Of a DNA stretch of 64,000 bases, positions 38,694 to 63,990 are shown piece after piece. The notes under the pieces are model-generated. The model was not told the origin of the DNA, searched no databases, and saw only the letters and a program-made list of their open reading frames with translations. Every line of letters begins with the position of its first letter. Position 1 is the stretch's first letter. The stretch comes from Elusimicrobiota bacterium. GTDB taxonomy: Bacteria > Elusimicrobiota > Elusimicrobia > UBA1565 > UBA9628. The translations under genes were made by a program, and so were the position numbers. The stretch lies in the NCBI GenBank assembly GCA_016234805.1, contig JACRNU010000054.1, forward strand, positions 24,329 to 88,328, in the 5' to 3' direction.

Positions 38694-40316
38694 ATGAACA
38701 AGGATTGCGATTTCCTCGTGCTTGGAAGCGGCATCGCGGGCCTCATGGCCGCGCACAAGCTCTCCACCCTGGGCCGGGTCGTGATCGCCACCAAGAAAGA
38801 CGCCGCCGAGTCCAACACCAACTACGCCCAGGGCGGCATCGCCTCCGTGACCGCGGCGACCGACAGCGTGGAGCGGCACGCGGCCGACACCATGGCCGCG
38901 GGAGCCGGGCTCTGCGACGAGAGGATCGTCCGCCAGGTGGTCACCGAGGGGCCTGAGCGCATCAAGGAGCTCATCAGCCTCGGGGTCAAGTTCAGCCACG
39001 CCAAGGCCGCTGCCAAGGCGCGCGGCTCGCGGCGGGGTCCGCGTCCCGCGGACCGCTCAGGCACGGCCCTGGACCTGGGCCTCGAAGCCGGCCACTCCCA
39101 CCGCCGGGTCCTCCACGCGGGCGACATCACCGGCCGCGAGATGGAGCGGGCCCTGCTCCAGCGCTGCCGCGAGAACCCCCGCATCCGCATCCTCGAGGAT
39201 TCCCTCGCCGTCGACCTCATCTGCCGTCCCGACTGCCAGGGCGCTTACATCATGGACGTCCGGAGCAGGAAGATCCACTCCTGGAGCGCCAAGGCCGTGG
39301 TCCTGGCCACGGGCGGGGCCGGCAAGGTCTACCTCTACACCTCCAATCCCGACATCGCCTCCGGCGACGGCATGGCCATGGCCTACCGCGCCGGAGCCGC
39401 CATGGCCAACATGGAGTTCGTCCAGTTCCACCCCACCTGCCTCTACCACCCGCAGGCCAAGTCCTTCCTCCTCTCCGAGGCCCTGCGCGGGGAGGGAGGC
39501 AGGCTCGTGCGCAAGGACGGCGCGGCCTTCATGGCAAAGTACACGCCCATGAAGGAGCTCGCGCCCCGCGACATCGTGGCCCGGGCCATCGACTCGGAGC
39601 TCAAGCGCACCGGCGACGACTGCGTCTACCTCGACATGACGCACCAGTCCCGCGGCTTCCTGCAAGGCCGCTTTCCCAACATCTACGAGAAGCTCATGAG
39701 CTTCGGCATCGACATGGCGGTCGAGCCCATCCCGGCCGTGCCCGCGGCCCACTACTTCTGCGGCGGGGTCAAGACCGACGCCTGGGGCTCGACCACCATC
39801 CCCGGCCTCTATGCCTCGGGCGAGGTGGCCTGCACCGGCCTGCACGGCGCCAACCGCCTGGCTTCCAACTCCTTGCTCGAAGGCTGCGTGTTCAGCCACC
39901 GCATCTTCCTCAAGCTCAGCGAGCTCTGGCCCACGCTCAAGCGCTCGCGCCCGGCCCCTCCGCGCGACTGGAACCCAGGCAAGGCCGTGCCCATCGACGA
40001 GGCCGTGGTCATCACCCAGAACTGGGACGAGATCCGCCGCCTCATGTGGAACTACGTGGCCATCGTGCGCTCCGACCGCAGGCTCGAGCGAGCGCTCCAC
40101 CGCATGTGGCTCTTGAACGCGGAGATCGACCAGTACTACTGGAACTACATCCTCACTCCGGACCTCGTGGAGCTCCGCAACCTCGCCGTGGTCGCGACCC
40201 TAGTCATCAGCTCGGCGCGCAAGCGCAAGGAGAGCCGCGGCCTGCACTACAACCTCGACCACCCCAAGCTTCGGGCCCGCGAGCTCCACGACACCGTCAT
40301 CCAGAGGAAGAAGTAG
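38694..40316 (+). CDS. nadB: L-aspartate oxidase
   Basis: FAD-binding motif DFLVLGSGIAGL, AQGGIA and RVLHAGDITGRE, plus the succinate dehydrogenase / fumarate reductase flavoprotein fold. Confidence 0.9.
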   Translation: MNKDCDFLVLGSGIAGLMAAHKLSTLGRVVIATKKDAAESNTNYAQGGIASVTAATDSVERHAADTMAAGAGLCDERIVRQVVTEGPERIKELISLGVKFSHAKAAAKARGSRRGPRPADRSGTALDLGLEAGHSHRRVLHAGDITGREMERALLQRCRENPRIRILEDSLAVDLICRPDCQGAYIMDVRSRKIHSWSAKAVVLATGGAGKVYLYTSNPDIASGDGMAMAYRAGAAMANMEFVQFHPTCLYHPQAKSFLLSEALRGEGGRLVRKDGAAFMAKYTPMKELAPRDIVARAIDSELKRTGDDCVYLDMTHQSRGFLQGRFPNIYEKLMSFGIDMAVEPIPAVPAAHYFCGGVKTDAWGSTTIPGLYASGEVACTGLHGANRLASNSLLEGCVFSHRIFLKLSELWPTLKRSRPAPPRDWNPGKAVPIDEAVVITQNWDEIRRLMWNYVAIVRSDRRLERALHRMWLLNAEIDQYYWNYILTPDLVELRNLAVVATLVISSARKRKESRGLHYNLDHPKLRARELHDTVIQRKK

Positions 40317-40347: not shown

Positions 40348-41151
40348 TCAGGCCGTCTTCCAGACCTCGTCGAGCGATTCGCGGAAGACGGCGTCCAGCG
40401 TCTCCCAATCCACGGGATGCCGGGCGGCCTTGGGAGGCATTTCATTGTTCAGCCGGGAGATCTCCCGCTCCACGAACCCATTGATATCCGGTATTCTGGG
40501 ACCGTCAGCGAGCTCTTCTCCCGCTCGCTTGCGGCGGAGGAGATCGGACACGATGGGTCGGAGCCGCTCGGGCAGCCGGTCGTCCACGAGTTTGGCGAAC
40601 TCCATCGGCGGCATGGACCGGTGCGCTTCGATCCAGCGGCACGCCAGGATCGGACGGAGCACATAGAAGTACTTCTTGGTGCGGACGCGCGGGCCCTGGA
40701 GATACTCGCGGAAGTTGCCCTGCGCCATGTGAAGATAGTGGTGGAGGCACGACCGGGAGGAAAAGAACGCCGCTGACATGCGGCGCAAGCTCGCCATCGT
40801 CGAATACGCCTCCCGATAGACCATCGGAGAACGGAGCCACTCGAAGAGCGGCGGATTCGATTTGGCGAAGAGCCCGAGAGCCTTCCGCAGGTCCCAACCG
40901 CTGACATCGAGAGATTCGGAAAGCGGGAATTCGAGGACATCCCTTCTCCGCTGGATCGACAGATACCATTCGGGCCGCCTCAAGTAGATGAAGCGGACGT
41001 CCCAATCGGAATCGGTCGAGGCGAAGCCCCATGCCCTGCTGCCCGATTCGACCGCGAGCAGGACTTTGACCCCTTCGTTCCTTTCAATCCGCCCGAGCGC
41101 GGCGCGGATGGTATTTTTCATGGCGTCTCTGTGCCCTTCCATCCGTATCAT
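40348..41151 (-). CDS. Pol-beta-superfamily nucleotidyltransferase (PF10127/RlaP-like 'predicted nucleotidyltransferase')
   Basis: GS...D.D core LLAVESGSRAWGFASTDSDWDVRFIY with a C-terminal helical domain. The start was taken at the ATG at 41151, a 4-nt overlap with the upstream gene. Confidence 0.55.
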   Translation of the reverse strand: MIRMEGHRDAMKNTIRAALGRIERNEGVKVLLAVESGSRAWGFASTDSDWDVRFIYLRRPEWYLSIQRRRDVLEFPLSESLDVSGWDLRKALGLFAKSNPPLFEWLRSPMVYREAYSTMASLRRMSAAFFSSRSCLHHYLHMAQGNFREYLQGPRVRTKKYFYVLRPILACRWIEAHRSMPPMEFAKLVDDRLPERLRPIVSDLLRRKRAGEELADGPRIPDINGFVEREISRLNNEMPPKAARHPVDWETLDAVFRESLDEVWKTA

Positions 41152-42326
41152 GATGCGTTGCCGCCGATCCCTCCGGCGCTCGATCGCGGATAACCCCGCT
41201 CGATTTCCGCGAATATCTGCCAATCCCTTGCAATAAACGGCTGAATGGTTCGGCCTGTCATTTCCCCCATAGCCTGAATCAGCGAGAGATCGTCCGGGTT
41301 GGCCATGGCTATTGCAAGGATGCCCTCGTCCAGGAAGAGAGGCACCACGGCGTGTTCTTTGGCAAAGGACCGCGGGATGAGTTTCTCTAGACCCTGCGCA
41401 TGTTCCATTTTTAGAATCTTGTTCTCGAATGAGGCATAGGGAATCCCCATCTGTCGCGAGATGGCTGTCACCATCGTCTCGTCATCGGTGCCGCCCACTC
41501 TACGCAGAAGATCCATGAAATCGTGGAAATCGATGCTCATGTCCACCCGTAATGCCTCGGCGATTCCCGCAGTGAGATCATATGCCGGCAGACGGCGAAC
41601 CTGGTTGGTGTGTTGGGGGAGGACCTGACGCAAGGCTTCTGTTCCAGCCTTCCATGGCTCGTCAGCCCGTTGCTTGTGATTGAACACGGTGCTGAACGAG
41701 CTGGGCAATCGGGATTGAACGAATTCCCGCGCAAGCGCGTTCAGGGCTGGGATGTTCCGTTCAGCGATATTGTCCTCGTGGGGATCGACAACCCAAAAGC
41801 CATGTTCGATCTCCATCAGGAGGGATCGGCCGAAATGGCTGGATGGCCGGTGGATATCCCCGATTTCTGGTCCGAAGTCCAGGACCACATTGTAATGGCT
41901 CTTTAGGTCGTCCAGCAAACCCTTCAAGAATTCGGGCGATAAAGCCTTAAGGGCGGACTCATTCTTCCCCAGCGGGAGGATGCCAAGTCCTGTGGTTGAG
42001 AACGGAACAGATGTAGTTGTCGCTTGGAGGTCCAGCACGCTTTGGGTACCGGCAATTCCAAGCTGTCCTTGGAATCGATTCGCGCTCTCGAAATCGAGTG
42101 TGAGCAGCACGGTCTTGCATCTGGACCAATCTGCCCACGCCAACGCGACATGGAATGCCAGAGTTGAAACTCCGACTCCCGGAACACCGGCGAAACCCAC
42201 CGCCTTCTTCGTGGCGATGGGGGTTGGACTGCTCCCGCCCGCCATGTCGGTCCCCACTCGTGTTGGCGGCCAACGGGGCGGTCTGTCTCGGGAGGCTTTG
42301 GGTTTCTTGTCTGGGTCGGATGTCAT
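41148..42326 (-). CDS. Fusion protein: degenerate ParA/MinD-like P-loop domain (Walker A Lys replaced by Val: GVPGVGVST) + GspE-N1 / MshEN-like domain
   Basis: The C-terminal 95 aa (ISRQMGIPYASFENKILKMEHAQGLEKLIPRSFAKEHAVVPLFLDEG...) is ~50% identical to residues ~50-145 of the GspE encoded at 59835-61583. The N-terminal half has a MinD/ParA-like layout with an inactivated P-loop. Local GC (~52%) is lower than the window average. Confidence 0.5.
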   Translation of the reverse strand: MTSDPDKKPKASRDRPPRWPPTRVGTDMAGGSSPTPIATKKAVGFAGVPGVGVSTLAFHVALAWADWSRCKTVLLTLDFESANRFQGQLGIAGTQSVLDLQATTTSVPFSTTGLGILPLGKNESALKALSPEFLKGLLDDLKSHYNVVLDFGPEIGDIHRPSSHFGRSLLMEIEHGFWVVDPHEDNIAERNIPALNALAREFVQSRLPSSFSTVFNHKQRADEPWKAGTEALRQVLPQHTNQVRRLPAYDLTAGIAEALRVDMSIDFHDFMDLLRRVGGTDDETMVTAISRQMGIPYASFENKILKMEHAQGLEKLIPRSFAKEHAVVPLFLDEGILAIAMANPDDLSLIQAMGEMTGRTIQPFIARDWQIFAEIERGYPRSSAGGIGGNAS

Positions 42327-42473
42327 CCTATTGTAGTCACGCCGACATTGGACTGCCTCCTAATGAGTAGATAGGCCAGTATAACACGGCTGACGAGAAT
42401 CGCTCAACAGATAAGCGCCCTGAAGGCCGTCGAAATCGGCAAGGGTGGTGCGTGTGGGTGGCATGCGGCGGGC

Positions 42474-42881
42474 CTATCGTCGTGCCTTGGATCTCCGATT
42501 GCCGCGGGAGGAGAGGGTTCCATAGCGACGACGGCGATCCGCCACGGCGGACTCTGTCCAGTGATAAGCGTGTCCTTTCCCGTTGATCGGGAAGAAGCCG
42601 ATCCTCAGGCCGTAGACGTTGAGGATCGCGTCCAGGGTGTTGAATTCGGGGTTGCCTCTTGAGGAAAGGGTCTTGTATAGGGTAGTCCTGCTCAAGCGGG
42701 TCTTCTTGGCCAGGGCGCCGACGCCGCCTTGGGCCTCCACGACATCGCGCAGGGCCTCCAGGAGGAAATCGAGTTCGTTGTCTTCGGCGATTGCGTTGAG
42801 GTAGGCAGCGGCCTCTATTGGATCGGCAAGATACTTCTTGAGGAACTCTTCATGCGGCCTAGTCGTGATGATGGGTTTCAT
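42474..42881 (-). CDS. Addiction-module antidote protein (HigA-like, TIGR02684-type HTH antitoxin)
   Basis: ...TRPHEEFLKKYLADPIEAAAYLNAIAEDNELDFLLEALRDVVEAQGG...LSRTTLYKTLSSRGNPEFNTLDAILNVYGL. It sits downstream of and overlaps the toxin gene. Confidence 0.7.
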   Translation of the reverse strand: MKPIITTRPHEEFLKKYLADPIEAAAYLNAIAEDNELDFLLEALRDVVEAQGGVGALAKKTRLSRTTLYKTLSSRGNPEFNTLDAILNVYGLRIGFFPINGKGHAYHWTESAVADRRRRYGTLSSRGNRRSKARR

Positions 42882-43222
42882 GGAAGCCTCCTGTGCTGTA
42901 GCCACATCTGGTGGGCTCTATGGATGTCCTTTGTCTGGGTATCCTTGGGGCCAGCGCAGAGCAGCAGCACGATGACTGGCCCGTCCTCGCCGTAGTAGAC
43001 ACGGTAGCCTGGGCCGGTATGGATGCGCAGTTCCCAGACTCCGCACCCCACGGAACGATGGTCTCCAAATTGGCCTTTGCGTACCCGGGCAATGCGCTTG
43101 AGGATCGCGATGCGACCGGACATGTCGCGAAGGCCGAATAGCCAGTCCTCAAAGATGTTCTTTCCATTGGCGAGATAGTGCTGAATCTGTCGTCTTCGGG
43201 GTTCCAAGTCTTCCTCCTTCAA
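42878..43222 (-). CDS. Addiction-module killer protein (RelE/HigB-like, TIGR02683-type)
   Basis: ...FEDWLFGLRD...GNFGDHRSVGCGVWELRIHTGPGYRVYYGEDGPVIVLLLCAGPKDTQTKDI. It is toxin-first, the HigBA-type arrangement. Confidence 0.7.
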   Translation of the reverse strand: MKEEDLEPRRRQIQHYLANGKNIFEDWLFGLRDMSGRIAILKRIARVRKGQFGDHRSVGCGVWELRIHTGPGYRVYYGEDGPVIVLLLCAGPKDTQTKDIHRAHQMWLQHRRLP

Positions 43223-43339
43223 GTGTAGTCTATAAAAGACAATCGGTCAAGGGCCCGGATCTCGACCTCACCCAGTGTTCGGGCGGGCGGATTGATCCCT
43301 GGGCCAGTGGAGCACCCAAGGCCGTTCATCGGCCGGCAA

Positions 43340-43440
43340 GAATTGCGTTTCCATTCATTTCGCTGTTTCCGGGATCGCGGAAATGGCGTTTCTATGAATT
43401 TCTCTTTCAGCGCTGGAAGAGAACTGCAGGGAAACGCAAT
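43340..43440. promoter_or_regulatory. Cluster of GCGTTTCC / GGAAACGC inverted and direct repeats upstream of the toxin-antitoxin operon
   Basis: AATTGCGTTTCC...CTGTTTCCGGG...CGGAAATGGCGTTTC...GGGAAACGCAAT within about 100 bp. This is a candidate operator array. Confidence 0.4.
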
Positions 43441-43802
43441 CATGCATCCGTGAGGGCGGCCGCGATACTCCGCTTCGTATCGAGCCAATCGTTGTCGAGC
43501 TGGGCTTGGCGCCGGTCAAGTTCGTAGAGCGCGCCTGCCGGCAGAGCCACGAGACGGCACCCGAGAGCTGCGTATAGACTTTTGAGCGTGCTGAGCCGGA
43601 TGTCCGAACCCTTCTCGGCCCGGCCGACCAACGAGGCGGAGACCCCTGCCTGGGCCGCGAGCTGCTTTCGATTCAAGCCGAAGCGGATGCGCAGCCGGCG
43701 CAGACATTCACCGACGTCCCACGACGCGAAGTCAACGGGAGCCGACTCCCCATGCGCGAGAGCATCGCGCACCGGATCGGAGACGTCCCGAAGTTCCCCC
43801 AT
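43440..43802 (-). CDS. XRE-family helix-turn-helix transcriptional regulator, divergent from uvrA
   Basis: HTH_XRE signature [48 protein letters not shown]. The start was chosen at MGELRD; the listed ORF extends further upstream. Confidence 0.55.
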
Positions 43803-43931
43803 ACAGAGTATACGACTGACCCCGGCAAAAAGTTCCCTTGGGGGCTTGAATCTCTGAAGGGAAATCGGAATCTCAATGGAATGGAGCTCGCGTTCGCGGA
43901 TAGGGGCCGAAAGGCCGGGCAGGAAGGCAAA

Positions 43932-46772
43932 ATGGTAGAATCGTCTCCGGTGGACAAGATACGCATCGTCGGCGCGCGCCAGCATAACCTCAAGAACATC
44001 ACACTGGAGCTTCCCAGGGGCAAGATGATCGTGCTGACAGGGCTTTCGGGGTCAGGGAAATCCTCCCTGGCCTTTGACACGCTCTATGCCGAGGGCCAGC
44101 GCAGGTATGTGGAGAGCCTCTCGGCTTATGCGCGGCAGTTCCTCGAGATGATGGACAAGCCGGACGTGGACCTCATCGAGGGGCTTTCGCCTGCCATCTC
44201 CATCGAGCAGAAGAACCCCTCTCACAACCCGCGCTCGACCGTGGCCACGGTCACGGAGATCTACGACTACATGCGCCTGCTCTACGCCAGGGTGGGCCTG
44301 CCGCACTGCCCGCAGTGCGGCAGGCCGATCAAGGCGCAGTCAGCGCAAGCCATCGTCAACGAGATACTGCGCAAGCACGACGGCCGATCCGTGACCTTTT
44401 ACTCCCCCCTGGTGCGGGGCAGGCAGGGCACTTACGAAGAGTTGTTCAAGCGGTTGAAGCGCTCCGGGTTCCAGGCAGTGCGTGTGGACGGCAAGCCGCG
44501 CGACCTGGACACGGTGCCGTCTTTGACGCGGTACGGGAAGCATACCATCGACCTTTTCGTGGACAAGCTGAAGGTGTCCGGGGATGACAAGGCCAGGCTG
44601 ACGGACTCGGTGGAGATCGCTCTCAAGGAGTCGAAGGGGCTGGTGTTGGTCGAGCCTGGGGGCTCGGCCAAGGACGCGGCTGTCTTGAGCGAGCACCACG
44701 CCTGCCCTGAGTGCGGGGTGAGCCTGCCGGAACTGGAGCCGAGGCTGTTCTCCTTCAACTCACCCTACGGCGCCTGTCCCACCTGCGACGGGCTGGGAGT
44801 CAAGACCGAGGTGGATGGTTCCTTGGTGGTCCCGGATCCCGGGCTCTCGGTCAATGACGGGGCCTTGGTGGCTTGGTCGGACCCGATCACGACCCGCACG
44901 AACAGGTGGAAGAAGTCCTGGTCAGGGTATTACACGGAGATCCTCCAGCAGGTCTGCCGGCAGCACGACATCAACATGGACAAGCCGTGGAAGGACCTTC
45001 CAGCCAAGCAGAAGCAGATCCTGTTCTACGGAGGCGGGACTTACAAGCCGTCCTGGGCGAAGAACGAGCAGGAGTTCGAGGGCGTCATCCGGAACCTGGA
45101 GCGCAGGCTCTCGGAGTCCGAGTCGGATTTCGTCAAAGGCGCGGTCGTGGACCGGTTCATGCGCAAGCGGACCTGCCCTTCCTGCAAGGGGGCCCGCCTC
45201 AAGCCCGAGGCCCTGGCGGTCAAGGTGGGCGGGCAGGGCATCGATCGGACCACGGGGTTGTCCGTGGCCAAGGCCTCGGAGTTCTTCAAGGGGCTGGACC
45301 TGAACGCGAGCGAGCTCTCGATCTCCAAGCCCATCCTCAAGGAGATCAACTCGCGCCTGGAATTCCTCATGAGCGTGGGGCTGGATTACCTCACCCTGGA
45401 CCGCGCCTCGGAGACCCTGGCCGGCGGGGAGTCCCAGCGCATCCACCTGGCCACGCAGATCGGGTCAGGCCTGACCGGGGTCCTGTATGTGCTCGATGAG
45501 CCCACCATCGGCCTGCATCCGCGCGACAACACGCGCCTGCTGGCCACTTTGAAGCGGCTTCGGGACATCGGCAACACCCTGGTGGTGGTGGAGCATGACG
45601 AGGAGACGATCCGCGCCGCGGATTGGATCGTGGACCTGGGCCCTGGAGCGGGCAAGCACGGCGGAGAGGTCGTGGCTCAAGGCACGGTGGACGACATCGT
45701 CAATGAGCCGCGGTCCCTGACAGGGGCCTATCTTTCGGGCAAGCTCAAGCCTCTCCAGCGGCTGGAACGGAGGAAGGCCAAGGGCTCCCTGCGGGTCCTG
45801 GGCGCCAAGCAGTTCAACCTCAAGGACATCGACGTGGAGATCCCCCTGGGCATGTTCGTGTGCGTCACCGGGGTCTCGGGGTCGGGCAAGTCCACCCTGG
45901 TGCACGAGGTCATCTGCAAGGCCCTGGCCGCGGACCTGCACGGCGCCAAGGAAGCGGCGGGACAGCACCGCGCCATCAAGGGCATCGAACAGTTGGACAA
46001 GGTCGTGGTGGTCGACCAGAGCCCCATCGGCCGGACCCCGCGCTCCAACCCCGCCACTTACACGGGCCTATGGGCCCCTATCCGCGAGCTCTTCGCCATG
46101 ATGCCGGAGTCCAAGGCCCGCGGTTACAAGCCGGGCAGGTTCTCCTTCAACGTCAAGGGCGGCAGGTGCGAGAACTGCCAGGGAGACGGCACCCTGCGCA
46201 TCTCCATGCAGTTCCTGCCGGACGTGTACGTGCAGTGCGACGAGTGCCACGGCCACCGGTTCAATGACGAGACCCTGACGGTCCGGTACAAGGGCAGGAG
46301 CATCGCCGAGGTCCTGGCCATGAGCGTGGAAGCGGCCTCGGAGTTCTTCCAGGTCCACACCCCCATCAAGCGGGTCCTGACTACCCTGCAGGACGTGGGC
46401 TTGGGCTATATCGCCCTGGGCCAGAGCGCGACCACGCTCTCAGGCGGCGAGGCCCAGAGGGTCAAGCTTGCCACGGAACTCTCGCGCAGGGGCACGGGCC
46501 GGACCCTCTACATCCTGGACGAGCCCACCACGGGCCTGCACTTCGCGGACACGGCCAAGCTCCTCGAGGTCCTCCACCGGCTGGTGGATTCGGGCAACAC
46601 GGTGCTCGTCATCGAGCACAACCTGGACGTGGTCTCGACCGCGGACTGGGTCGTGGACCTGGGCCCTGAAGGAGGCGACCGCGGGGGTCATGTCGTGGCT
46701 GTGGGCCACCCCAAGGACATCGCCAACCACCCATCTTCCCACACCGGCCGCTACCTAGCTGCCCTCAAGTAG
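43932..46772 (+). CDS. uvrA: Excinuclease ABC subunit A
   Basis: Two ABC ATPase modules ([14 protein letters not shown]..., [11 protein letters not shown]...), zinc fingers (CPECG..., CENCQGDG...CDEC) and LSGGE signatures, 946 aa from the ATG at 43932. Confidence 0.95.
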
Positions 46773-58583: not shown

Positions 58584-58609
58584 TGTGTGCAAGTTGTGAA
58601 TCATTTCGC
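58584..58609. promoter_or_regulatory. 18-mer TGTGTGCAAGTTGTGAAT in the pilin upstream region (shared with the two-component operon promoter)
   Basis: 17/18 identity to 53229-53246. It lies between the gspF stop and the pilin start. Confidence 0.45.
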
Positions 58610-59827
58610 CCCCAGGGAGGACATCTTGAAGATGGGCAGGAACACGGCCAGCACGATGGTGCCGACGATGAGGCCGATGCCGACGACCATGATGGGCTCG
58701 ATGATGGCCGTGAACCTCCGGGTGAACTGCTCGATCTGCTCGCGGTAGAAGCCCGAGAGGGTCACGAGCATCTCGGGGAGCTTGCCGGACTCTTCTCCCA
58801 TGAACATCATCTCGGTCACCAGCGGAGGGAGGACGCCGGTCTTCTTGAACGCTCCGGAGATGGATTTGCCGCTCGCCACGTCGTTGCGAACCATGCGCAG
58901 GAAGCGCTGGAACATGACGTTGGTGGCGAAGACCCCCTCGAGCACGGTGATGGTGTTGAGGATGCTCACGCCGCTCTCGATGAGGGCCGACATGGTCGTG
59001 AGCAGGCGCTCGACGAGGATGTTCATGATGAACTGGCCGAAGAAGGGGACCTTGAAGGTGAGGGACCATTTCGTCACGTTGCCGGCTTCCGTCGAGGTGT
59101 AGGCCCTCCAGACGAACCCCGAGCCGACGAGGACGAACACGAGGGCCGCGAAGTGGTGCACCATGATGTCCGAGATCAGGACGATGGCCTTGGTCAGGGG
59201 CGGGAGCTGGACTCCGAACTGCTTGAAGATGTCGGAGAAGACCGGCACGATCTTCACGATGAAGAAGGTGAGCACGCCCATGGAGATGAAGAACAGGATG
59301 CCCGGGTACGCCAGGGCGGTGATGACCTTGGCCTTGAGTTCCGACTGGGCCGCGAGGTAGGCGCCGATCTGCTTGAGGGATTTCGGGAGCTGGCCGCCCA
59401 TCTCTCCGGCCTGCACCAGGGAGACCCAGAGGGTGTCGAAGGCCTTGGGGTGCTTCTCGAGCGCCTTGTACAGGGCGGTCCCGCTGGCCACGTCCTTCGT
59501 GACCTGGCCGACCGCGATCTGCAGGCCCTTGGAGCTCGAGTGCTCGCCCAGGAGCGAGAGGGCGCGCACCAGGGGCACGCCGCCGTTGAGGAGGGTGGCC
59601 AGCTGCTCCGCGAAGAAGACGAGGTCGCGCTCGGCGACCCCGGCGGAGCTGACCGCCGCGCCCTTGCCCGACAGCGAGGAGCGGGCGCTCTTGTCGGACG
59701 AGATCGACAGGATGAAGTAGCCCTTGCCCTGGAGGACGCCGATCGCGTCGTTCTCGTCGTTGGCCTCGAGCGAGCCGGAGATGGTCTCTCCCTTGCTGTC
59801 CTGGACCGTGTACGCGAAGCGTGCCAT
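58601..59827 (-). CDS. gspF: Type II secretion / type IV pilus inner-membrane platform protein (GspF/PilC family)
   Basis: 408 aa with two T2SSF repeats (LATLLNGGVPLVRALSLL..., LTTMSALIESGVSILNTITVL...) and 3 TM segments. Confidence 0.9.
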   Translation of the reverse strand: MARFAYTVQDSKGETISGSLEANDENDAIGVLQGKGYFILSISSDKSARSSLSGKGAAVSSAGVAERDLVFFAEQLATLLNGGVPLVRALSLLGEHSSSKGLQIAVGQVTKDVASGTALYKALEKHPKAFDTLWVSLVQAGEMGGQLPKSLKQIGAYLAAQSELKAKVITALAYPGILFFISMGVLTFFIVKIVPVFSDIFKQFGVQLPPLTKAIVLISDIMVHHFAALVFVLVGSGFVWRAYTSTEAGNVTKWSLTFKVPFFGQFIMNILVERLLTTMSALIESGVSILNTITVLEGVFATNVMFQRFLRMVRNDVASGKSISGAFKKTGVLPPLVTEMMFMGEESGKLPEMLVTLSGFYREQIEQFTRRFTAIIEPIMVVGIGLIVGTIVLAVFLPIFKMSSLGAK

Positions 59828-59834
59828 GGTTCTC

Positions 59835-61583
59835 CTAGTCCGCCAACGTGATGGACATGATCTCTTCGACCGTGGTGAGGCCCCGGATGACTTTGCGCCA
59901 GCCGCTCGCGCGCAGGCTCAGCTTGCCGAGCTTGTCCGCCACGGAGCGCAGGCGGGTGAGGTCGCCGCCGTACTTGTAGATGATATCCTTCATCTCCCGC
60001 TCCATGGGGTAGACCTCGAGGATGGCTTTGCGGCCTCCGTAGCCGGTGCGCGCGCACTTGTCGCAGCCCTTCTCTTTGTAGAACATGAGCGTGTCGAGGT
60101 CGGGCTGGTCCTCGGGCTTGAGCATCGCCTGCTCGACGACCATCTTGGCCTCGTCGGCCTCGGGCTTGTAGGGCTTCTTGCAGAGGGGGCAGAGCACGCG
60201 CACGAGGCGCTGCGCCGCGGCGAGTATGAGGCTGCCCGAGAGGAGGAACGGCTCGATGCCGAGGTCGATGAGGCGCACCACGGTCGAGAGGGCGTCGTTG
60301 GTGTGCAGGGTGGAGAGCACGAGGTGGCCGGTGAGGGCCGCGCGCAGGCAGGTCTGGGCGGTCTCCTGGTCGCGCACCTCTCCGACCAGGATGACGTCCG
60401 GGTCCTGCCGCAGGAAGGAGCGCAGAGCGGCCGCGAAGGTGAGCCCGATGGCGGCGCGCACCTGGACCTGGTTGATGCCCTCGAGCTTGATTTCGACGGG
60501 GTCTTCGATGGTCATGAAGTTGAGCTCGGGGGTCTTGATGGTGTTGAGGACCGTGTTGAGGGTGGTGGTCTTGCCCGATCCGGTCGGGCCGGTCAGGAAG
60601 ATGAGCCCGTGCGGCATCGCCGCGCACTTGAGGAAGTCCTCCTTCTGCTCGGGCTCGAGGCCGATCTTGTCGATGTTGAGCTCGACCGCCCCCTTGTCGA
60701 GCAGGCGCATGACCAGCTTCTCGCCGTAGACGGTGGGGCAGATGCTGACGCGCAGGTCGATGATCCTGTTCTGGATCTTCATCGAGAAGGTGCCGTCCTG
60801 GGGCAGGCGCCGCTCCGCGATGTCGAGCTTGGAGAGGATCTTGAACCTGGACACGACCGGGCTGAAGAGGGACTTCGGCGGCGGCATGCGCTCGTAGAGA
60901 CAGCCGTCGATGCGGAAGCGCAGCATGACGCGCTCGTCGTAGCACTCGAGGTGGATGTCCGAGCACCTCTCGGCCACGGCCTGCTTGAGGATGGCGTTGA
61001 CGAGCGCGACCGGGTGCGCGTCCTGGCCGCCGCCGGAGGTGTCCTTGTCGAGGTCGAGCTTCACGTCGGCGTCCGGCATCTCCTCGGCCGCCTCGGTCGT
61101 GGCCGACTGCTTGTCCATCGTCTTCTCGATGATCTCGCGTCCCCCGGCCTGGTAGAACTCGTCGATGGCCTTGATGATCTGGGTCTTCGTCGCGACGAAG
61201 GGCTGGACCTCCCGGCTGGTGAGGAGCTTGAGGTTGTCCATCATGACCATGTTGTCGGGGTTGACCACGGCCACGGCGATGACCCCTTCGTCGAGGAACA
61301 GGGGGAGGACCAGGTTGTCCCGGGCGAAGGACTCGGTGATGAGCTTCTCGAGGCCCTGGCCCTTCTCGGCCTTGAGGATCTTGTTCTCCTTGGAGGCGTA
61401 GGGGACCCCGATCTGCTTGGACATCGCGACCGCGATGTCCTCTTCGGTCGCGAACCCCAGCTTGATGACCGCTTCGGCGAACTGACACCGCGCCTGCTGC
61501 GCGGTCTTGAGGGCTCTCGAGTGCTGCTCCTCGTTGAGGACATTGCCCTGAAGCAGTATCTGGTCCAAGGTCAGCTTCTGCAT
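59835..61583 (-). CDS. gspE: Type II secretion / type IV pilus assembly ATPase (GspE/PilB family) with an N-terminal N1E/MshEN-like domain
   Basis: Walker A LIFLTGPTGSGKTTTL, Asp box, Walker B, His box and a tetracysteine motif (CPLCKKPY...CDKCARTGY). The N-terminal domain is paralogous to the C-terminus of the 41148-42326 protein. Confidence 0.9.
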   Translation of the reverse strand: MQKLTLDQILLQGNVLNEEQHSRALKTAQQARCQFAEAVIKLGFATEEDIAVAMSKQIGVPYASKENKILKAEKGQGLEKLITESFARDNLVLPLFLDEGVIAVAVVNPDNMVMMDNLKLLTSREVQPFVATKTQIIKAIDEFYQAGGREIIEKTMDKQSATTEAAEEMPDADVKLDLDKDTSGGGQDAHPVALVNAILKQAVAERCSDIHLECYDERVMLRFRIDGCLYERMPPPKSLFSPVVSRFKILSKLDIAERRLPQDGTFSMKIQNRIIDLRVSICPTVYGEKLVMRLLDKGAVELNIDKIGLEPEQKEDFLKCAAMPHGLIFLTGPTGSGKTTTLNTVLNTIKTPELNFMTIEDPVEIKLEGINQVQVRAAIGLTFAAALRSFLRQDPDVILVGEVRDQETAQTCLRAALTGHLVLSTLHTNDALSTVVRLIDLGIEPFLLSGSLILAAAQRLVRVLCPLCKKPYKPEADEAKMVVEQAMLKPEDQPDLDTLMFYKEKGCDKCARTGYGGRKAILEVYPMEREMKDIIYKYGGDLTRLRSVADKLGKLSLRASGWRKVIRGLTTVEEIMSITLAD

Positions 61584-61723: not shown

Positions 61724-63412
61724 CTAGTCGCCGACGATCGTAGGCGTGATGAAGATGACCAGGTCGGAGTTCTTCCTGCGGGTGCTGCTCGAGGTGAACA
61801 GCCACCCGATGAGAGGGATGTAGCCGAGGAACGGGACCTTGCGTACCACCTTGTTCTCGGTGGATTGCAGAAGTCCGCCGAGCACCAGGGTCTGCCCGTT
61901 CTTGACCCGGACCAGGGTGGAGGCCCCCCTGGTGATCGGGTCGAAGATGCGCTTGGCCGAGGAGGAGATGGCGGACTCCTGAGCGTCCGTGAAGGAGGGT
62001 TGGACGAGCATGGTGATGTAGCCCTCCTTGTTGATCTGGGGAGTGACCTTCAGGATAAGCCCGGTCGTGACGCGCTCCACCGTGACGGAGGCCGTGCCCA
62101 GGCCGGAGCCCGAGGACGCGCTCTGCTGTTGGGTGGCCACGGCCGCGTTCCGAGCAATCTGGATGATGGCCGGCTTGTTGTTGAGGGTGAGCACCTTGGG
62201 CTTGCCGAGGAAGCGTGCCTCGGAACGGCTGACCAGGGCCCTAAGCACGACCTTGAGCATGGTGAGGTCGAAGATGCCGTTGGTCAGGGCTCCAGTGCCC
62301 GGGACCGTGACCGGGAAGGGAGAGGAGGTCTCAGCGGCGGCTTGGGACGTCCCTGTGGCTTCGCCATCGGCTCTCGCGACGCTCCCGGTGGTGAACGGGT
62401 CGAAGAAATGCGTGTTGCCCATCTTATTTGGGAGGTTGAGAGGGAACGAGACGTCGCGCTTTCCCGCGGTGAAGCTCGCGAGCTCGCCTCCCGCGCCGCC
62501 CCACTCGAAGCCCAGCTCCCGGGCGCGGTCCGAGTTGATCTCCACGATCTGCGCCTCGATCATGACCTGCGGGGTCTTCTTGTCGAGCTCGGCGATGATC
62601 TGCTCGACCTGGGGGAAGGACTCCGGGATGTCCGTGACGATGATCGAGTTGGTCCGAGGCTCGATCGCGATCGAGCCATTGGTCTTGCTGAGCACGCTCT
62701 GGATGACCTTGACGATCGCGACCTCTCCCCCGCCGCCGGTCGAGCCTCCGCCCGCAAGACTGGCGACGCTCGACACCGGCGTGATGGAGGCTTGCTCGGA
62801 CTCGGCGCTGCCCAGGGCGATGAGAGGGACATAGGCCAGGGTGTAGATGCGGGTGATCACGGGCTCGGCGGCCTTGGAGCGCGGGGCGATGACGAAGGTG
62901 TTGCTCTTGCCGATCTGCTGGTAGGTCAGGCCCTTGATCTCGAGCAGGATCTGCAGGGCCTCGCGCACGGTGACGTTCTGCAGGAAGGCCGTGATCTGCT
63001 TGGTCTCCAGCCCTTCGGTGATGATGAAGTTGACCTTGGACTGGGCGGAGATGGTGTCGAGGAAGGTCGCCAAAGGCGCCCCTTTCACGCGGACCGTGAC
63101 GCGCGTCTCGAGCGGATTGAGCGGCGAGGCCGGGGCGGCCTTCGACGGCGCGGCCGCTCCGATCTGGATGCCGCCGACCGCGGGACGGGCGACGGCTTCG
63201 GGCTCGGCGCCCGGCGGCGGTCCCTCGTCGGTGGGGACGCCCAGGGGGCCGGCCTCCGACGCCGGGGAAGCCTGCGTCCCCTTGAACTCGGGGTTGGCCA
63301 CGGGCTCCTCGCGCCGCCTCTGCGCGAACCCCGGGCCGGCCGAGGAAAGGATGATCTGGACAGCGATGGTGATCGCGCTGATGCGTTTCGCGATGCTCTT
63401 GATTGTCATCAT
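61724..63412 (-). CDS. gspD: Secretin (GspD/PilQ family outer-membrane channel)
   Basis: Signal peptide MMTIKSIAKRISAITIAVQII, N-domains and the C-terminal secretin domain (...VRVKNGQTLVLGGLLQSTENKVVRKVPFLGYIPLIGWLF...VIFITPTIV). The start was taken at the ATG at 63412. Confidence 0.85.
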   Translation of the reverse strand: MMTIKSIAKRISAITIAVQIILSSAGPGFAQRRREEPVANPEFKGTQASPASEAGPLGVPTDEGPPPGAEPEAVARPAVGGIQIGAAAPSKAAPASPLNPLETRVTVRVKGAPLATFLDTISAQSKVNFIITEGLETKQITAFLQNVTVREALQILLEIKGLTYQQIGKSNTFVIAPRSKAAEPVITRIYTLAYVPLIALGSAESEQASITPVSSVASLAGGGSTGGGGEVAIVKVIQSVLSKTNGSIAIEPRTNSIIVTDIPESFPQVEQIIAELDKKTPQVMIEAQIVEINSDRARELGFEWGGAGGELASFTAGKRDVSFPLNLPNKMGNTHFFDPFTTGSVARADGEATGTSQAAAETSSPFPVTVPGTGALTNGIFDLTMLKVVLRALVSRSEARFLGKPKVLTLNNKPAIIQIARNAAVATQQQSASSGSGLGTASVTVERVTTGLILKVTPQINKEGYITMLVQPSFTDAQESAISSSAKRIFDPITRGASTLVRVKNGQTLVLGGLLQSTENKVVRKVPFLGYIPLIGWLFTSSSTRRKNSDLVIFITPTIVGD

Positions 63413-63438
63413 GATGTCTCCCTTGGTGCCGCCGTCCG

Positions 63439-63990
63439 TCACTGCATGCGCTTCAAGAATGCCTTGCCCTTGTGCGTGAAAGTCACTCCTGTCTGGGAGA
63501 TCTTCAGGACCTTGATCCCCGAGTTCCCGATCCACTCGCCTTCGCTGTACATGTCGTTGTTGATGATGGCTTTGTTGCCTTCCGGCGTGGTCACGATGCC
63601 CTGCAGGCTGAGGGTCTGCTCGACGGGCTTGTCTCGCTGGACCTTGGCCCGGAGCGCCTGCTCTTCGACCTCTTTGCGTTTGATGAGCTTCTCGAGCTCC
63701 TCCTGTTCGAGGAGGAACTGGTCGTAGGGGGAAAGCAGGGGATCGCGCCAATCCACGGCCACGAGGTCCGCGGTGCTCACCGCGATTTCCGGGGCCTGCG
63801 GCGGGGCCGGCGTCGCCAGGGACGCGGTCGAGGCCGGAGGCCGAGCGTCCCCGCCGCCCTCAGGCATGGCGTTGGCGGACGGGGGCGCGGGGGTCACGGC
63901 GCCGGAGGCGTCGACCGGGGCCGGGTCGGACGGGGCGGCCGCGTCCACCACGGCGGCCGCTGTCTGGGAGGCGGTCTCCGTGCTGACCAC
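63439..63990 (-). CDS. Ala/Pro-rich protein with a PilP/GspC-like C-terminal beta domain; possibly 5'-truncated by the window edge
   Basis: The C-terminal ~70 aa (LQGIVTTPEGNKAIINNDMYSEGEWIGNSGIKVLKISQTGVTFTHKGKAF) resemble secretin-binding pilot domains. The listed ORF reaches to within 10 nt of the window end. Confidence 0.35.
   Translation of the reverse strand: MVSTETASQTAAAVVDAAAPSDPAPVDASGAVTPAPPSANAMPEGGGDARPPASTASLATPAPPQAPEIAVSTADLVAVDWRDPLLSPYDQFLLEQEELEKLIKRKEVEEQALRAKVQRDKPVEQTLSLQGIVTTPEGNKAIINNDMYSEGEWIGNSGIKVLKISQTGVTFTHKGKAFLKRMQ

Follow-up and report, generated by a model that had tools for sequence, protein, structure and literature searches.

A motor-less fusion gene in an Elusimicrobiota contig

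The gene described here lies in a 64,000-nucleotide stretch of an Elusimicrobiota metagenome-assembled genome (MAG; GenBank assembly GCA_016234805.1, contig JACRNU010000054.1, positions 24,329 to 88,328 of the forward strand), hereafter called the window, whose first letter is position 1 for all coordinates below. The open reading frame (ORF) at 41148-42326 on the minus strand, which sits exactly where an original prediction made from the sequence alone had placed it, encodes 392 amino acids comprising a Pro-rich N-terminal motif, a TadZ/MinD-like domain and an N1 (MshEN) domain of the type found in the motor ATPase PilB. We tentatively read its product as a real, horizontally acquired, non-catalytic two-domain protein that would dock on the platform of a pilus or secretion machine, and whose net effect would most likely be competition with PilB. 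The features of the gene, followed by the local motor with which it is compared, are:

41148-42326, minus strand: whole gene, 392 amino acids, from the ORF list
42249-42284, minus strand: N-terminal Pro-rich motif RPPRWPPTRVGT, residues 15-26, from alignment A1
41592-42209, minus strand: MinD/ParA-fold domain assigned to the Elusimicrobia TadZ/CpaE-like clade, residues about 40-245, from phmmer, a profile search, PDB profile matches, and AlphaFold2 (AF2) with Foldseek
42162-42188, minus strand: degenerate Walker A motif GVPGVGVST, G47-T55, by direct sequence reading
41448-41528, minus strand: helical hairpin homologous to MshEN motif II, residues 267-293, from the PilB alignment, motif scoring and predicted helices at 267-277 and 282-293
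41178-41447, minus strand: alpha/beta MshEN_C (N1E) subdomain, residues 294-383, from Pfam, AF2, the Foldseek match 9g1w and conserved columns
59835-61583, minus strand: local PilB/GspE-type ATPase (P0002), 582 amino acids, whose N1 is the best-scoring database relative of the C-terminal domain of the ORF

The N-terminal domain

In Pfam the ORF itself has no CbiA, AAA_31 or ParA match at E<=1, whereas most relatives of its N-terminal domain do match these families. An exhaustive phmmer search with residues 28-270 against 1.84 billion cluster representatives returned only 10 proteins at a threshold of E<=1e-3, and a profile search of a 5.8-billion-protein set found about 35 relatives, mostly from Elusimicrobia where a taxon was named. 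When the family profile was compared with the PDB it matched the ParA-family structure 3ea0, FleN/FlhG and MinD at E values of 6e-10 to 6e-08 and the two-domain structure 3fkq at 3e-4; 3ea0 and 3fkq are the TadZ structures of Chlorobium and Eubacterium rectale. An AF2 model of the ORF product was built from a curated 38-row alignment of trimmed sequences (mean predicted local distance difference test score, pLDDT, 77; predicted template modelling score, pTM, 0.65), and its best PDB matches in Foldseek were 3ea0, FlhG (4rz2/4rz3), MinD (1hyq) and FleN (5j1j), with a top E value of about 2e-08 at probability 1.0, the whole group within E 5e-07 and TMt 0.59-0.66; NifH-type proteins and BcsQ were also among the best matches. 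On profile comparison and structure prediction together, the MinD/ParA fold of this domain can be regarded as established, and the ParA/MinD assignment of the original prediction is borne out by these matches and by the CbiA/AAA_31 matches of the relatives.

The Walker A segment of the ORF (AGVPGVGVST) departs from the deviant pattern KGGxxGK[ST], with V48 in place of the signature Lys/Arg and V53 in place of the P-loop Lys; re-reading of GVPGVGVST thus shows Val at both lysine positions, as expected from the earlier claim that the catalytic Lys is missing. At the same place the closest relatives of the ORF read SAHSGVGKST or SARRGVGKST and the Tad-associated relatives GPKEG[VA]GK[ST]T. Residues D78 and D150 are invariant in family alignments A1, A2 and A5, and we interpret them, on our own reading of the alignments, as the aspartates of switch I and Walker B. 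To call the domain catalytically dead, as had been done, is reasonable given that both Lys are lost, with the caveat that TadZ-type proteins tolerate loss of the P-loop Lys: the TadZ Walker A-like consensus is K/RGGxGxS/T, which already allows for loss of the P-loop lysine (bioRxiv 10.64898/2026.07.08.737194), and 3ea0 reads KGGDGGS at this position, without a P-loop lysine. Compared with that consensus, the VPGVGVST of the ORF keeps the GxGxST core, but the K/R and the first Gly are gone. Another case of P-loop decay in the TadZ-like clade is seen in P0027 (822 amino acids), where N-terminal tetratricopeptide (TPR) repeats are followed by two tandem TadZ-like domains, the first with the P-loop GPKEGVGKST and the second with the degenerate GPKEGAGTTT.

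By sequence relationship, the N-terminal domain belongs to an Elusimicrobia TadZ/CpaE-like clade whose members normally occur in Tad pilus loci, frequently as fusions to a TadA/CpaF motor. One relative (P0042) occupies the TadZ position of a Tad locus with the order TadE, RcpC, secretin, P0042, TadA-family ATPase, two T2SSF genes and TPR, and in four others (P0036, P0037, P0040 and P0043) the TadZ-like domain is followed, in the same frame, by the N-terminal part of an ATPase of the TadA family. The TadZ-like and TadA parts in locus L003 (8688-10955) are called as separate genes 25 nt apart, P0042 ending within the TadA N-terminal region, an arrangement that may reflect either a genuine split or an error in sequencing. 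Neither a Tad ATPase nor another TadZ-like gene was found in the 64-kb window. The ORF has no Response_reg match in Pfam, and just ~40 residues stand ahead of its P-loop, a stretch which is disordered in the AF2 model (pLDDT below 50 for residues 11-35).

The C-terminal domain

BLASTP aligned residues 270-386 of the ORF with residues 35-148 of the local PilB at 46% identity and 69% positives (E 4e-32, one 3-residue terminal gap), and the best ungapped register pairs ORF residues 295-390 with PilB residues 60-155 at 45/96 identities (47%). The homology reported in the original prediction is thus real, though its figures of 52% identity and PilB residues 50-145 were slightly off. A profile check identifies the domain as T2SSE_N/MshEN, in line with the earlier assignment, since residues 313-381 score 60.6 bits (E 1.5e-16) with the Pfam family MshEN (PF05157, T2SSE_N), above its gathering cut-off of 23.1. 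Residues 290-380 are modelled by AF2 with pLDDT 91-98, and the strands at 327-333, 336-341 and 360-365, lying between helices, give the MshEN_C fold; in Foldseek the domain matches the GSPII-A domain of PilF (9g1w) at E 2e-06. No match to PF00437 (T2SSE) was found for the ORF in Pfam, there being no N2 and no ATPase domain, and the protein ends 9 residues past N1. The architecture is therefore the one that had been claimed, an inactive ParA/MinD-type domain joined to a PilB/GspE N1 with no motor, and with neither N2 nor the catalytic domain the protein cannot itself drive any machine.

When this domain was searched against the 5.8-billion-protein set, only PilBs of Elusimicrobia and of a few neighbouring candidate phyla matched, the best being the local PilB. 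In the domain alignment the N1 of the ORF has 38-46% identity with all Elusimicrobia PilBs and 45% with the corresponding domain of P0026, a related fusion protein described below, whose own N1 is 63-68% identical to one PilB subclade. Judged from this alignment, the N1 of the ORF sits on a long branch, with no sign of being a recent local copy. With 18 Elusimicrobia PilBs as the reference for column conservation, it keeps 20 of the 25 invariant columns and 35 of the 53 conserved in at least 80% of sequences, but 18 of the 61 variable ones; genuine PilBs of a neighbouring clade keep just 10-11 of the 25 invariant columns. Non-conservative losses in the ORF cluster at residues 346-378, which in PilB form the lead-in to the N2 linker.

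The original prediction had also raised the possibility that the domain is a receptor for cyclic di-GMP (c-di-GMP), which would make the ORF a second-messenger-dependent regulator. The Pfam family name MshEN invites this idea, as do the tandem motifs of other Elusimicrobia PilBs, of which P0010, P0011, P0013 and P0020 keep them near-perfectly; several PilBs of the phylum, serving as positive controls, reach 11/11 and 10/11, with the required 5 residues between the two motifs. Binding, however, takes place in the four-helix MshEN_N subdomain via two 24-residue motifs joined by 5 residues, the motif being RLGxx(L/V/I)(L/V/I)xxG(L/V/I)(L/V/I)xxxxLxxxLxxQ, and MshEN_C gives one dispensable contact (PMC5013675). 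All that the ORF retains of MshEN_N is one degenerate hairpin, the motif II homologue, in which DFM replaces RLG and which scores at most 7/11 on the relaxed motif. Motif scoring over the whole ORF revealed no tandem arrangement and no recognisable motif I, the best score of the relaxed scan (8/11) equals the mode of 200 shuffles, and there is no match to NF053729 at E<=1. With motif I missing and motif II degenerate, c-di-GMP binding by the ORF is not expected, and we regard this proposal as very improbable. The local PilB is itself degenerate: its residues 1-57 contain no RLG in either motif, motif II alone was found, matching 5/11 positions of the strict pattern, and against NF053729 the protein reaches 21 bits where the cut-off is 38. 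Since these motifs are lost in the local PilB and intact in other Elusimicrobia PilBs, control of the motor by c-di-GMP seems to vary between lineages of the phylum.

Related fusions that lack the motor

Sequence comparison indicates that the ORF is not unique but belongs to a very small Elusimicrobia family, very rare in current data, whose members combine this TadZ-like domain with PilB N1 and/or N2 and carry no motor. The family is defined here by a TadZ-like N-terminal domain with the signature AWADW.SC, followed by one or more PilB-derived N-terminal segments without an ATPase domain, and the ORF fits this definition in alignments A1 and A5. P0026 (484 amino acids) aligns with ORF residues 35-379 at 32% identity (E 3e-50) and has the TadZ-like domain followed by PilB-like N1 and N2, its residues 256-482 being 49% identical to residues 35-295 of the local PilB, while P0029 (421 amino acids) has the TadZ-like domain, an N1 stump and N2. 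Both are complete genes with stop codons and share an end at the boundary between N2 and the C-terminal domain (...VVLRLITA and ...VVLRLKPA), with 51% identity between them in the N-terminal domain and 45% in N2; a common end point at such distances implies that the motor-less form has been kept through substantial divergence. Searched with subfamily alignment A5, 185,579 species genomes yielded one locus, while JGI metagenome contigs and viral contigs yielded nothing. We found no earlier description of a TadZ-like domain joined to PilB/GspE N-terminal domains without a motor, both domain families being known.

As the source is a MAG, the two halves could in principle have been joined only by a chimeric contig or by read-through in gene calling. 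The same TadZ-like to MshEN junction is present in P0026, which comes from an independent sequencing run, and the composition of the ORF is of coding type (GC1/2/3 of 0.61/0.46/0.64, overall GC 0.568) and essentially uniform in GC, GC1 and GC3 (GC at the first and third codon positions) between its halves, both of which have a GC3 of 0.64, with GC2 just 0.01 apart. An assembly or gene-calling artefact is therefore hardly credible.

The family also bears on the start of the gene. The NCBI protein HZB91_08285 (365 amino acids, from an Elusimicrobia MAG) is identical to the ORF product and has its annotated start at M28. The N-terminal motif RPPRWPPTRVGT has the counterparts KPPRYPPTAIGT in P0029, KPPRRPPTAVGT in the TadZ-like protein P0034 and KPPRYPPTAVGT in L006, a further member from another Elusimicrobia MAG, giving the common consensus [KR]PPR.PPT.[VI]GT, and it is kept among members that are just 25-30% identical (alignment A1). 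As the motif is conserved in these three, we argue for the ATG at 42326 as the start codon, which lies 27 codons ahead of the NCBI M28, so that the 392-residue form, with the extra codons at 42245-42326, is probably the real one rather than the 365-residue model. Two signals were seen further upstream:

42337-42361, minus strand: AGGAGG at 42356-42361 and a mini-ORF at 42348-42337, by direct sequence reading
42378-42407, minus strand: candidate promoter of sigma-70 type, TTGAGC-18-TATACT plus an extended -10 TG, from a consensus scan (a pattern match only)

The AGGAGG is a strong Shine-Dalgarno sequence, followed 7 nt on by the 3-codon mini-ORF ATG TCG GCG TGA in another frame, the stop of which lies 10 nt ahead of the ATG of the ORF; the AGG belonging to the latter ATG is poorly spaced. 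Such an arrangement may represent translational coupling, reinitiation or a leader.

Genomic neighbourhood

The ORF lies in a ~3.5-kb islet (40348-43985) between nadB (38694-40316) and uvrA (ending at 46772), in which GC3 is 0.64-0.79 as opposed to about 0.9 in the flanking genes. The other features of the islet are:

40348-41121, minus strand: RlaP-family (pol-beta) nucleotidyltransferase (Pfam RlaP, E 8e-94, match from residue 35 of the long ORF; PHROG nucleotidyltransferase)
42474-43222, minus strand: toxin-antitoxin pair immediately upstream of the ORF, GC3 0.69-0.72
42474-42905, minus strand: HI1420-type helix-turn-helix (HTH) antitoxin of this pair
42878-43222, minus strand: Gp49-like/HigB-type toxin of this pair
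43440-43985, minus strand: XRE-type regulator

The probable start of the RlaP gene is 27 nt downstream of the stop of the ORF, and the two genes may be co-transcribed. At the other end, the longest UvrA ORF (43752-46772, plus strand, 1006 amino acids) overlaps the XRE gene by about 230 nt; its Pfam matches run only from about residue 70 onwards, so that uvrA probably starts further downstream.

The GC3 of the ORF is the lowest among the screened ORFs of the window (those of at least about 90 codons with coding-like GC by position), and the marked difference in GC and codon usage from GspE/PilB noted in the original prediction is confirmed, PilB, PilC and NadB having GC3 values of 0.94-0.96. 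By its foreign codon usage and its place in a low-GC3 islet, the ORF appears as a horizontally acquired gene, which had been offered earlier as one possibility, and transfer from a lower-GC member of the same phylum would fit these data. A recent local duplication of pilB was also considered and is rejected on the GC3 contrast (0.64 vs 0.96), the protein identity of only 46% and the islet location, as had been argued before. No tRNA, integrase or flanking direct repeats were found in the islet. Searches of the ORF against PHROGs, PADLOC and BFVD gave no matches, leaving an origin from a phage or a known defence system unsupported.

The relatives P0029 and L006 likewise stand beside toxin-antitoxin modules and away from pilus genes. 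The P0029-type gene occurs at a variable spot upstream of electron-transfer flavoprotein (ETF) genes (L001 1099-3702; L006 1138-3431); P0029 in L001 adjoins BrnT/BrnA downstream of a tRNA-Tyr, which is present upstream only in L001, and the gene in L006 adjoins AbiEi/AbiEii.

The local secretion/pilus operon is 16-21 kb from the ORF and consists of a secretin (61724-63751), PilB, PilC (58601-59827) and N-methyl pilins. In the operon of a related Elusimicrobia MAG, PilM_2-like and GspM genes are located upstream of the secretin and PilB.

Proposed role and rival explanations

In type II secretion and in type IV pili the motor attaches through its N1 to the cytoplasmic domain of GspL/PilM, contacts deduced from the crystal structures 2BH1 and 4PHT of EpsE-EpsL (reviewed in PMC11656802), and TadZ-type domains mediate positioning and partner binding (PMC11407121; bioRxiv 10.64898/2026.07.08.737194). 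An N1 without a motor, carried on a TadZ-like module without a nucleotide site, would be best explained as an ATP-independent platform-binding adaptor. The N1 of the ORF would occupy the site on a cytoplasmic GspL/PilM-like platform that is normally used by the N1 of the PilB/GspE motor itself, while the TadZ-like domain and the N-terminal motif would allow the protein to self-associate, or to attach to a positional partner, independently of ATP. In relatives that retain N2, the protein could additionally cap PilB protomers. From this architecture the family probably modulates a pilus or secretion machine, and because the ORF has no motor, is accessory, foreign in codon usage and sporadic, and lies outside any machine operon, the most likely net effect would be competition with PilB for the platform, lowering pilus or secretion activity. 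Pre-marking or positioning of the platform would be a less likely effect. The roles put forward in the original prediction, as a decoy, a localisation factor or a regulator of the local PilB, are thus all plausible ones.

A bolder extension, to which we assign a low probability, is that the ORF and its relatives make up a hitherto unrecognised class of inhibitors of type IV pili or type II secretion systems (T4P/T2SS), accessory and carried on islands, which are built from the machine's own parts: an N1 or N1+N2 mimic on a TadZ-like oligomerisation or positioning module would sit in the GspL/PilM socket, or else cap PilB protomers, and thereby stop the machine. If the protein is an inhibitor, a possible benefit would be that pilus-dependent phage adsorption or DNA uptake is blocked, as with Tip/Aqs1 and prophage FimU mimics.

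Several observations weigh against the competitor reading. No gene for a GspL/PilM-like partner is present in the 64-kb window, the region equivalent to PilM_2/GspM lying beyond it. The identity of the ORF's N1 to the local PilB (46%) is not above that to other Elusimicrobia PilBs (38-46%), and such equidistance, like the foreign codon usage, means that the protein is not visibly co-adapted to the local machine. The family amounts to four known loci, all from metagenomes or MAGs, and one of these is broken: L006 is a P0029-like gene with an internal deletion and a frameshift, its 190-residue N-terminal and 108-residue N2 pieces being in different frames, which suggests that the family is dispensable in some lineages. 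The ORF itself has a degenerate look, being the sole member with N1 but without N2, having lost both Walker A lysines where its relatives keep GVGK[ST]T, bearing a ~20-residue deletion at the end of the MinD-like domain in comparison with P0026/P0029, and reaching a pLDDT of just 51-67 over residues 200-280 in the AF2 model.

Some of these points would equally be expected if the ORF were a decaying remnant, that is, a recently transferred, inert fragment of an ancestral TadZ-like/PilB fusion which has lost motor, N2 and nucleotide site and has not yet accumulated stops. Each member shows a different internal loss, P0026 having N1 and N2, P0029 having lost most of N1, the ORF N2, and L006, besides its frameshift, half of the MinD-like domain and the whole of N1; the lysine losses confined to the ORF, the location in a low-GC3 islet of accessory genes and the extreme rarity in the cluster-representative, species-genome, metagenome and viral-contig searches described above point the same way. 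Decay is harder to reconcile with an intact frame of 392 codons, for which we estimate a chance of about 1e-6 (at ~3.5% stops per codon and 57% GC), with the selective retention of PilB-invariant over variable positions, with an N-terminal motif conserved across members that are so distant, with the C-terminal domain modelled at pLDDT above 90, and with the identical C-terminal end of P0026 and P0029 at 45-51% identity, which implies long maintenance. On balance we consider a remnant somewhat unlikely.

The main functional rival of the decoy reading is a positive positioning or assembly factor, whose N1 would bind the platform while the TadZ-like domain and the Pro-rich motif bind a cellular landmark, so that assembly is promoted at a specific site. 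This gains from the membership of the N-terminal domain in the TadZ-like clade, given that TadZ/CpaE localises the Tad machine and TadA (PMC11407121) and that the TadZ region of the Bdellovibrio TadZA fusion, which also lacks the atypical receiver domain (ARD), binds together with its linker to the polar hub RomR (bioRxiv 10.64898/2026.07.08.737194); the loss of the P-loop lysine is likewise tolerated in the TadZ consensus and in 3ea0. A machine-specific assembly factor would, however, be expected to be conserved together with its machine, whereas the ORF is sporadic and rare, is neither in nor beside any pilus or secretion locus, has foreign codon usage and is without even the signature Lys/Arg, which is retained in TadZ proteins. 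We consider a positioning factor unlikely and continue to prefer, with the reserve stated at the outset, a platform-docking competitor of PilB.

What N1 does in the motor ATPases of pili and secretion systems is poorly understood (PMC11656802), and the ORF would be a ready-made probe both of motor docking and of how positioning ATPases couple to type IV filament machines; if inhibitory, it would represent a new design among pilus-blocking accessory genes. Fusions of TadZ to an ATPase, which have very recently been described in Bdellovibrio, occur commonly in the Tad loci of Elusimicrobia, and the TadZ-like scaffold has here also been recombined with another ATPase subfamily, PilB/GspE.

Comparison with known systems

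The ORF shares with TadZ/CpaE proteins the MinD/ParA fold, its best profile and fold match being 3ea0, with 3fkq also matched, and relatives of its N-terminal domain fill the TadZ slot of an Elusimicrobia Tad locus. It differs from them in having neither the receiver-like ARD nor the signature Lys/Arg, in lying outside a tad locus and in carrying a C-terminal PilB-type N1. The ATPase of EpsG is a MinD-related bacterial tyrosine kinase (BY-kinase). Proteins of the EpsG BY-kinase type (TIGR03029; supplement of PMC5013675) resemble the ORF in that a partial MshEN is combined with a P-loop ATPase domain other than T2SSE, but the order of the domains is opposite, and EpsG has the c-di-GMP-binding MshEN_N and an active kinase where the ORF has MshEN_C and an inactive TadZ-like domain.

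In the Bdellovibrio TadZA and the Elusimicrobia fusions P0036, P0037, P0040 and P0043, as in the ORF, an ARD-less TadZ-like domain is placed N-terminal to type IV filament ATPase domains; those proteins carry a complete TadA/CpaF motor, whereas the ORF carries only the N1 of PilB/GspE, a different ATPase subfamily. With the MshEN/T2SSE_N domains of MshE, PilB and GspE (PMC5013675; PMC11656802) the ORF shares a significant PF05157 match and a predicted MshEN_C fold, differing in that its domain is C-terminal, detached from the T2SSE ATPase and without motif I. T4P inhibitors encoded by mobile elements or by the host, namely the peptides Tip/Aqs1/Zip/CpiA (PMC11656802) and the prophage FimU mimics (PMC12952977), are likewise accessory and encoded outside the pilus operon, and the ORF would, like them, have the extension motor or the machine as its target; they have no sequence or fold relation to the ORF, which itself has no PHROG or PADLOC match and no relative on a viral contig, so that the analogy is functional only, the FimU mimics demonstrating that a copy of a machine part carried on a mobile element can block a pilus (PMC12952977).

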